IMG/VR virus record: IMGVR_UViG_2690316115_000015
Coordinates: 1-12,317 of that record
DNA: 12,317 nucleotides
Origin: a virus
Taxonomy: Duplodnaviria; Heunggongvirae; Uroviricota; Caudoviricetes
Strand: one strand, 5' to 3'
Shown: one piece after another, positions 8,385-8,881 of the stretch
Position numbering within the stretch: the first letter of the stretch is position 1
Layout of the letters: each line of letters starts with the position of its first letter
Position numbers and translations under genes: made by a program
Notes under the pieces: generated by a model
What the model was told of the DNA's origin: nothing
The model's database searches: none
What the model saw: only the letters and a program-made list of their open reading frames with translations

Positions 8385-8400
8385 TTTTTCCTTTCCTCAT

Positions 8401-8423
8401 GCCGGGTTATCGCCCGGCTTTTT
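8401..8423 (+). terminator. Intrinsic terminator after the capsid gene
   Basis: GCCGGG-TTATCG-CCCGGC hairpin followed by TTTTT, 17 nt after the capsid stop. Confidence 0.65.
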
Positions 8424-8438
8424 CAGGAGTCATTAATT

Positions 8439-8831
8439 ATGGCAAAGACCATCCTTGCCCCGTCACTGAGTGAACGGGTCTATACGGGTACGCACGGTAA
8501 TGAGTCGGTGGCAGAAGGTGTGTTTACTGTGAATGCTGCGGAAGCGGACAGTGTTATTCATCTTCTTTCGTTGCCGATCGGTGTTCGTATTAATGCGTTA
8601 CAGCTGGTTTCTACCAAGGGACTTGGCGGCACAGCAACTGTCAGCGTTAAATCTGGCGAACATGAACTCATTGGTGACAGTGGTGCAGTAACTGCCAGCT
8701 TTACCAAGTATGTGCCAGTGGAGCCGTACACCACACAGCGTGACGGAGAGCTGGTTACGGTCACCATTAAGACAGCAGCTGCAACCGGCACCCTGAATGT
8801 TCTGCTGCGTTATACCGTGGTGGGTTACTGA
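8439..8831 (+). CDS. Small abundant virion protein, possibly a capsid decoration protein (function uncertain)
   Basis: 130 aa, rich in Gly/Thr/Val/Ser and predicted beta-rich. Has its own SD (CAGGAG) and is bracketed by intrinsic terminators on both sides. Codon usage matches the structural operon. Confidence 0.5.
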   Translation: MAKTILAPSLSERVYTGTHGNESVAEGVFTVNAAEADSVIHLLSLPIGVRINALQLVSTKGLGGTATVSVKSGEHELIGDSGAVTASFTKYVPVEPYTTQRDGELVTVTIKTAAATGTLNVLLRYTVVGY

Positions 8832-8844
8832 TATAAACCTTCCG

Positions 8845-8867
8845 GCCCGCGTCATGCGGGCTTTTTT
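8845..8867 (+). terminator. Intrinsic terminator after the 130-aa gene
   Basis: GCCCGC-GTCAT-GCGGGC hairpin followed by TTTTTT (8862-8867), 14 nt after the stop at 8831. Confidence 0.65.
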
Positions 8868-8881
8868 ATCCGGGGAATTAT

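Follow-up and report, generated by a model that had tools for sequence, protein, structure and literature searches.

Filled heads of phage lambda are stabilised by the small protein gpD, whose trimers bind the outer shell surface at three-fold sites and whose copy number is close to that of the major capsid protein (MCP). In phage T7, an intrinsic-type terminator, T-phi, is located just after the major capsid gene 10, and partial read-through of this site leads to lower expression of the tail genes. The capsid of phage phi24B has been determined by cryo-EM at 2.5-2.7 Å in a preprint of April 2026 (bioRxiv 10.64898/2026.04.10.717836), and it is on this preprint that the structural assignment of gp67 rests. 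There, gp67 is described as a trimeric cementing capsid protein (CCP) found on the outer surface at every three-capsomer junction, with nine CCP for nine MCP in each asymmetric unit. Each gp67 subunit combines a 4+4 Ig-like domain with an N-terminal arm that "hugs" the adjacent subunit, and the trimer is anchored by His19, while the cement protein of Ralstonia phage GP4, unlike gp67, uses Asp anchors and shows no such hugging between subunits by the N-arm (bioRxiv 10.64898/2026.04.10.717836). The terminators flanking the phi24B gene are not discussed in that preprint (bioRxiv 10.64898/2026.04.10.717836). In Stx phages, transcription of the late genes starts at PR' and is subject to Q antitermination, according to Sy et al. 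(2020), whose data on EHEC Sakai include Term-seq, dRNA-seq and RNA-seq.

Here, we analyse a 12.3 kb stretch of viral DNA, referred to below as the window, in which a 130-aa ORF directly follows the MCP gene and is flanked by two terminator-like hairpins. The explanation that best fits the locus as a whole, and that we consider likely, is that the ORF encodes a cement protein, that the hairpins are conserved elements of the late operon and that they serve gene dosage; this overall judgement is weighted towards the first two parts.

Results

The window represents the packaging and head module from a lambdoid prophage with a short tail that belongs to the subfamily Sepvirinae (933W/phi24B/Stx-phage type). 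The gene order was built from ORFs, Pfam, PHROGs and the annotation of Shigella phage POCJ13, itself a member of the Sepvirinae, and is shared with POCJ13 and phi24B (Table 1). Over positions 7000-9500, identity is 98% with POCJ13 and 80-95% with about 190 Stx-converting phages; for the region of the cement gene, it reaches 100% with a prophage of E. coli ML35. Of 5,426 complete E. coli genomes, 421 carry the locus. A scan of contigs for the locus returned one match, a 1.6-kb contig labelled "Xanthomonas pisi" that carries an E. coli-type copy. A suspected divergence from POCJ13 after position 10540 was ruled out: the tail-fibre gene simply continues past the last base of the window. An IS629 end and a moron are located just upstream in the window. 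The 153-aa gene is the first in a row of adaptor and tail genes that overlap tightly. Only three gene junctions in the window are wider than 23 nt and these are occupied by the hairpins T0, T1 and T2, with all remaining neighbours overlapping or separated by 23 nt or less.

Table 1. Genes and RNA elements of the window, in order of position.
Feature	Position	Strand	Remarks
Small terminase	1335-2150		
Large terminase	2131-3837		
P22-type portal	3837-5981		
T0, terminator-like hairpin (GGAACCCCG...CGGGGTT)	5998-6027	+	T run continuing past the stem; dG -13.7; 17 nt after portal stop
335-aa gene in scaffold position	6139-7146		Name based on position
Major capsid protein (MCP), 404 aa	7170-8384	+	PF13252 (E = 1.4e-88), TIGR04387 / N4-gp56 family, POCJ13 annotation; ortholog of phi24B gp69
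G-free, pyrimidine-rich spacer TTTTTCCTTTCCTCAT	8385-8400	+	Between MCP stop and T1
T1, predicted terminator	8401-8423	+	Hairpin 8401-8418, T5 tract 8419-8423
Shine-Dalgarno AGGAG of the cement gene	8425-8429	+	9 nt before ATG; read from sequence
Capsid cement (CCP) gene, 130 aa	8439-8831	+	
T2, predicted terminator	8844-8868	+	Hairpin 8844-8862, T6 tract 8863-8868
153-aa gene, phrog_482	8882-9343	+	First gene 3' of T2
Adaptor-type gene 1	9327-9890		
Adaptor-type gene 2	9890-10540		PF24175, SU10 adaptor family
Tail-fibre gene	from 10537		Continues beyond the end of the window

The 130-aa ORF almost certainly encodes a capsid cementing protein, in identity as well as in role. Its product is 89% identical at 100% coverage to vb_24B_31 of phi24B, which corresponds to gp67, and the 14 substitutions and a 1-residue difference in length that separate the two are clustered at residues 47-90 of the beta-sandwich. 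To equate the two names, the gp numbers of the preprint were placed on GenBank record HM208303 by counting features downstream of the portal, with numbers falling from gp72. This yielded gp72 as portal, gp69 as MCP (vb_24B_29), gp67 as vb_24B_31, gp64 and gp62 as adaptors, gp61 as tail spike and gp47 as the giant protein. The mapping is one-to-one with the GenBank order and was checked on seven other virion proteins (portal, MCP, both adaptors, tail spike, gp57 and gp47); gp84 of the preprint's virion list falls outside the HM208303 stretch compared. The ORF starts 54 nt after the PF13252 / N4-gp56-family MCP gene, an order that is identical in all relatives examined. The anchoring residue His19 is part of the N-arm motif Y-x-G-x-H-G-N and is invariant across 14 close homologs; in the wider family, G17, G20 and N21 are the only invariant residues of the motif and position 19 is variable.

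General databases carry little by way of a name for this protein. Searches of Pfam and NCBIfam with the ORF returned no match, the sole database label is PHROG 486 "virion structural protein" and RefSeq lists the product as "hypothetical protein". A sequence search of the PDB, using a copy that contains no phi24B entries, gave chance matches alone (E of at least 0.14), and an exhaustive HMMER search collected about 50 family representatives at 25-90% identity. Annotations of related E. coli podoviruses likewise name the ORF product "virion structural protein". Good peptide coverage has been published for a protein of that label, with some ambiguity as to which protein bears it. In the Burkholderia relative JC1, mass spectrometry of virion-associated proteins places gp49, encoded directly behind the MCP gene, third by score.

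The predicted fold of the ORF product matches that of solved cement proteins. An AlphaFold2 model built with 36 homologs (24-93% identity to the ORF) has a pLDDT of 93.7 and consists of an N-arm and 8 beta strands, giving the N-arm plus 8-stranded (4+4) beta-sandwich of the solved structures. Foldseek searches with this predicted model returned the cement proteins of GP4, Pam1 and KHP40 as best matches. The protein is thus both a member of the GP4/Pam1/KHP fold group and the close ortholog of a structurally characterised protein. The first-pass annotation of this DNA had guessed at a capsid decoration or cement protein and had proposed comparing a predicted structure with known decoration proteins; the guess is borne out by the gp67 identity and by the outcome of that comparison. 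A reading of the product as a tail component is excluded.

By orthology to gp67, three CCP copies would join through their N-terminal arms to form a "tulip" trimer, and this trimer would sit on the outside of the T=9 shell at three-capsomer junctions, anchored by His19. Demand for cement protein would then roughly equal the number of MCP copies, or about 540 per virion. Placement at three-capsomer junctions in equimolar ratio with MCP is the cryo-EM result of the 89%-identical ortholog and is carried over here by analogy. The capsid-like copy number that the annotation called for agrees with the nine CCP per nine MCP seen in phi24B, where the cement protein is an essential-looking component of the shell.

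T1 and T2 have the form of intrinsic (Rho-independent) terminators, each being composed, at the sequence level, of a GC-rich stem and at least five U on the sense strand after a stop codon. The T1 stem (GCCGGGT/GCCCGGC) contains 7 pairs, 6 of them G-C, closed by a TATC loop with a dG of -12.7 kcal/mol, and the T2 stem contains 8 pairs, 6 of them G-C, with a dG of -13.2 kcal/mol. Under strict criteria (dG of -12 kcal/mol or lower, at least 4 G-C pairs and at least 5 T in 8), the + strand of the window yields exactly three sites, T0, T1 and T2, all of them intergenic and none followed by a further strong site downstream of T2 within the window. The chance expectation from 100 dinucleotide shuffles is a mean of 0.14 sites per window with a maximum of 1. 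Terminators had previously been marked at 8401-8423 and 8845-8867 on either side of an ORF with its own Shine-Dalgarno, and all three elements are found in our analysis, the second terminator extending by one base at each end. Because neither T1 nor T2 has a T tract on the opposite strand, their action should be confined to the sense strand of the operon.

A search for sigma-70-like promoters on the + strand between 7700 and 9000 found none, including in the gap of about 20 nt between T1 and the ATG and in the 3' end of the MCP gene. Since no promoter is found between T1 and the ATG, the cement gene would be transcribed solely by read-through of T1. The idea of an "insulated", separately tuned transcription unit that had been attached to this arrangement is consequently abandoned. 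T0, which the first-pass annotation had overlooked, lies after the portal gene, and therefore the cement gene is not uniquely bracketed; in relatives, a fourth hairpin follows the gene in scaffold position. The special bracketing originally read into the locus thus dissolves into a longer series.

The hairpins are very probably selected RNA elements. Among 22 relatives dereplicated at less than 90% cement-protein identity, T1 is present in 21 and T2 in 20, loci with unreliable cement-gene starts (L079, L087 and L088) having been left out of the counts. Across seven lineages with cement proteins 25-89% identical to that of the window, both gaps measure about 50-65 nt, and in each of them a GC-rich hairpin precedes a T tract, with stems that are unrelated in sequence (GCCGGG, GTCGGG, TGCGGC, TAGGGTAAG, AACCCAG, AGCCGGA and AGCAGGC, by lineage). 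Within one lineage, of about 75% MCP identity, pairing holds for 95% of the cells of T1, and slid controls collapse; 3 of the 8 T1 pairs change on both sides, for example in a G-C, G-U, A-U series. Elsewhere in the loci of the relatives, terminator-like sites occur at 0.36 per kb, and most of these fall at two fixed places: one follows the portal gene and the other, seen in lineages other than that of E. coli, is the junction of the scaffold-position and MCP genes. The sites in relatives accordingly cluster around the shell genes and are not spread over the operon.

Exceptions are few and varied. Apparent absences under a stricter scan are mostly T tracts that are one base short. T1 is missing from the 24-nt gap of L062 and its hairpin is absent in Vibrio phage D79, L075 has a weakened T1 stem and L076 has a T2 hairpin with no T tract. 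In L006, a 240-nt gap filled with repeats follows the cement gene; its first 110 nt contain no T2, and a hairpin with a T run is located near the next gene. For the corresponding gaps of JC1, ARNold predicts no terminator. The GC-rich genomes of GP4, BcepIL02 and LKA5 have very stable hairpins in both gaps, mostly lacking a T tract, and several hairpins of GC-rich relatives carry CTTCGG loops. Because these relatives keep the hairpins but mostly not the T tracts, their sequences point to the hairpin itself as the conserved element.

The gene neighbourhood is conserved too. We compared a Salmonella prophage, three metagenomic contigs, a Pseudoalteromonas contig, 80 IMG/VR contigs and the phages Vibrio D79, LKA5, BcepIL02 and GP4, and in every context the order is scaffold-position gene, MCP gene, cement gene, a gene of about 150 aa and adaptors. 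This synteny holds down to about 30% MCP identity, with the cement gene at the same position in phages from E. coli to Vibrio, Pseudoalteromonas, Burkholderia and Ralstonia. The hairpins are conserved punctuation of the head-gene operon and not the borders of a separate transcription unit.

Given that late transcription in Stx phages is carried out by Q-modified polymerase from PR', the cement gene would be expressed by read-through of T0 and T1. Polymerases arriving from upstream would pass both sites and transcribe the gene; judging from the phage type, these would be Q-modified, terminator-resistant enzymes that started at PR', with the Q gene located outside the window. One function that the hairpins may well have, and that we put forward tentatively, is to set the dosage of shell mRNA against tail mRNA by leaky termination, by protection of 3' ends or by both. 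They would raise the steady-state level of mRNA for the shell genes (scaffold-position, MCP and cement) compared with the adaptor, nozzle and fibre genes, shell proteins being needed in about 540 copies and adaptor, nozzle and fibre proteins in 6-12. Two routes could lead there. The fraction of polymerases that lacks antitermination could terminate at the hairpins, as at T-phi after gene 10 of T7, or, after cleavage of the long late transcript, stable stem-loops at the 3' ends could stop 3'-to-5' exonucleases. The U-tract-less hairpins of GC-rich relatives favour 3'-end protection as the common denominator. Attenuation ahead of the downstream assembly genes, already suggested by the first-pass annotation, is plausible, and leaky terminators that balance gene dosage have been documented in phage LUZ7 in a paper that also cites the inefficient terminators of T7.

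Two features of the series count against this dosage scheme. T1 separates two products that are needed 1:1, so that real termination at this site would under-supply cement protein unless translation compensates. T0, for its part, follows the gene for a 12-copy protein, the portal, and is a misfit with a simple rule of abundant genes followed by hairpins.

A more specific version of the dosage reading is possible, although we think it rather doubtful at present. Here, the whole hairpin series (after the portal, MCP and cement genes and, in most relatives, the scaffold-position gene) would be a post-transcriptional device: antiterminated polymerases would read through, the hairpins would fold into 3' exonuclease blocks and the shell segments would outlive the tail segments after endonucleolytic cuts. 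If true, such a device would help to explain protein ratios of about 45:1 from a single late transcript. Relatives with a hairpin and no U tract would then be a clue that the hairpin and not termination has been selected.

A different function for the same sites would be to keep the late genes silent in the lysogen. The terminators would mainly stop unmodified RNA polymerase, arising from a leaky PR' or reading in from IS629 or the moron, the head genes would be Q-dependent and the sites would not influence ratios in lytic growth. In its favour, late operons of Stx phages are known to work by Q-dependent read-through (Sy et al. 2020), an IS629 end and a moron do lie just upstream in the window, and in the lambdoid lineages of enterobacteria T0, T1 and T2 have the canonical form with a U tract, U tracts being mostly missing in GC-rich relatives. 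Yet those same GC-rich relatives keep hairpins at the same two junctions, where, mostly U-tract-less, they are unable to terminate. Moreover, a terminator 3' of the MCP or cement gene cannot block the expression of that gene itself, and the sites are concentrated around the shell genes instead of being placed along the whole operon. We therefore regard silencing in the lysogen as an unlikely main function and retain shell dosage as the preferred reading.

The equal need for MCP and cement protein could also be met by translational coupling. In this scenario, the spacer after the MCP stop pairs with the Shine-Dalgarno of the cement gene across the base of T1, and a ribosome terminating on the MCP gene melts the helix, leading to 1:1 synthesis. 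A helix of this kind, UGAU...UCCU with AGGAGUCA, is indeed predicted, and in the E. coli lineage the pairing probability of the Shine-Dalgarno is 0.94-0.96, the window itself giving 0.96. Shuffled spacers, however, pair nearly as well (mean 0.91, with 27% reaching the observed value), and because these have the same composition as the native spacer, the signal is compositional. Most of the other lineages show no more pairing than their shuffled flanks do, compensatory changes were not observed and L064 and L007 have no such spacer. Coupling of this type is accordingly improbable.

Still less credible is the proposal that the gene forms an autonomous cassette, that is, a separately transcribed, highly expressed or horizontally gained unit held between efficient terminators. 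The terminator-like sites on both sides and the gene's own Shine-Dalgarno gave rise to it, and an acquired surface-display or accessory cassette had been named at the outset as the alternative to a cement protein. Against it stand the lack of promoter-like sites between T1 and the ATG and at the end of the MCP gene, the shared position in every relative examined and the essential-looking role of the product in the phi24B shell. The G+C content of the cement gene (0.50-0.53) is, in addition, level with that of the neighbouring genes, and the cassette reading is rejected.

An Hfq-binding small RNA related to the prophage RNA IsrK, formed from the 3' end of the cement gene and T2, is equally hard to credit, given that the Rfam match to isrK (RF01394) at 8775-8866 is weak (22.4 bits against a gathering threshold of 50, E = 0.25 for the whole window), that its alignment depends on the stem of the terminator plus a single chance hairpin, that other terminator-containing families match the site equally weakly and that no promoter-like site lies upstream.

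Discussion

A product that RefSeq lists as a "hypothetical protein", and for which neither Pfam nor NCBIfam has a model, can now be given a name, the capsid cement protein of Stx-type podoviruses. Its exposure and its roughly 540 copies make the protein a candidate site for display and a candidate antigen, and possibly a surface for contact with the host, a role also raised as a possibility in the phi24B preprint. The conserved hairpins, in turn, offer a testable handle on the ratios of structural proteins in lambdoid late operons. Our literature search on a terminator pair in Stx-phage head operons found nothing specific. To our knowledge, neither the conserved pair of hairpins around the cement gene throughout this MCP family nor the loss of U tracts in GC-rich relatives has been described.

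Of the known cement proteins, phi24B gp67 (vb_24B_31) is the closest, sharing with the window ORF the position after the MCP gene, His19 and the same two flanking hairpins. The 'virion associated' cement protein of Ralstonia phage GP4 (PDB 8h89 chain J) is about 20% identical and its profile comparison with the ORF product is weak (probability 31%). It has 157 residues as opposed to 130, and the first hairpin of its locus, unlike T1 of the window, is not followed by a T tract. Cyanophage Pam1 gp6 (7eel_H) and gp16 of the Helicobacter phages KHP30/KHP40 (7dn2, 7dou) are likewise about 20% identical, and their hosts and the rest of their virions are unrelated. Lambda gpD is analogous in function, with an unrelated fold and no sequence similarity to the ORF product, and is absent among the best 50 and 60 fold matches listed for the ORF model.

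For the hairpins, the nearest functional precedent is T-phi of T7, after gene 10. T7, however, uses its own RNA polymerase and a single site, whereas here the host polymerase, presumably Q-modified, would meet three sites, one of them between genes whose products are needed in equal amounts. Set beside this precedent, the conserved hairpin architecture is a variation on a well-known theme and not a new principle, and we see it as a modest addition to what is known of such systems.

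Hairpins between the head genes of the prophage and of its relatives

Besides the terminators T1 and T2 that flank the cement gene, which encodes the 130-aa capsid cementing protein, the window holds a third canonical terminator (T0) after the portal gene. T0 is absent from the consensus terminator scan because its T run lies partly inside the stem. It is overlapped by an 87-aa ORF (5978-6241) that is probably not a real gene and that has no counterpart in the annotation of Shigella phage POCJ13. Most relatives from outside E. coli carry a fourth hairpin-plus-T site in the gap between the scaffold-position gene (335 aa in the window, downstream of the portal gene) and the major capsid protein (MCP) gene; this gap measures only 23 nt in the E. 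coli lineage, where the hairpin is absent.

The most stable hairpin of the window (9 pairs, dG -16) is located elsewhere, at 10485-10508, within the 3'-terminal part of the SU10-adaptor-family gene; it lies on the minus strand and has only a poor T tract.

Positions of features at the upstream end of the window and around the shell genes of related loci
Feature	Position	Strand	Remark
End of IS629 copy	window 1-107	-	window begins here
204-aa gene, histidine-phosphatase domain	window 151-765	-	next after IS629 end
Terminator T0, GGAACCCCGTCATCGTACGGGGTTTTTTTG	window 5998-6027	+	directly 3' of portal stop codon
Fourth hairpin-plus-T site	L004 about 1684; L005 and L006 about 1678; L051-L082 about 3460
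CsrA-like (carbon storage regulator) gene	L089 (GP4) 1679-1876; L090 (BcepIL02) 2098-2292		just upstream of MCP gene

Sequences flanking the cement gene

The MCP stop codon is separated from T1 by a 16-nt pyrimidine run without G (8385-8400, plus strand). Similar G-free, C/T-rich spacers are found in Salmonella and other lineages, where the hairpin stems differ, and CCTCTCAT is common to some of them. Pairing of the window's spacer with the Shine-Dalgarno sequence showed no excess over the expectation from composition. At the other end of the cement gene, the Rfam model of the prophage sRNA isrK gave a weak match at 8775-8866 on the plus strand (22.4 bits versus a gathering threshold of 50), which we judged to be due to chance, the match being carried by the T2 stem. 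In the metagenomic relative L006, a 240-nt gap follows the cement gene and is filled by an AT-rich tandem repeat (3407-3567) with 12.4 copies of the 13-nt unit TTACTTTAATCAA, with a hairpin-plus-T site only near the next gene.

A cement protein 89% identical to that of E. coli is encoded on a 1,649-bp contig assigned to 'Xanthomonas pisi' DSM 18956 (NZ_JPLE01000221.1). This contig most likely represents contamination or a mis-binned fragment of a Stx-type phage.

Regulatory and accessory genes near the head module

A CsrA-like gene 5' of the MCP gene is a trait of GP4 and Bcep22-like relatives; in GP4, a 95-aa hypothetical ORF separates the two genes. A CsrA homolog has been reported in virions of the Burkholderia relative JC1. 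A translational regulator that binds RNA, encoded beside shell genes punctuated by hairpins, may have a bearing on the control of their expression.

At the upstream end of the window, the 204-aa gene appears to be a moron located just 5' of the terminase genes. Its equivalent in phage GER2 is annotated as 'lipopolysaccharide core heptose(II)-phosphate phosphatase', whereas POCJ13 carries a Rha-like regulator in its place.
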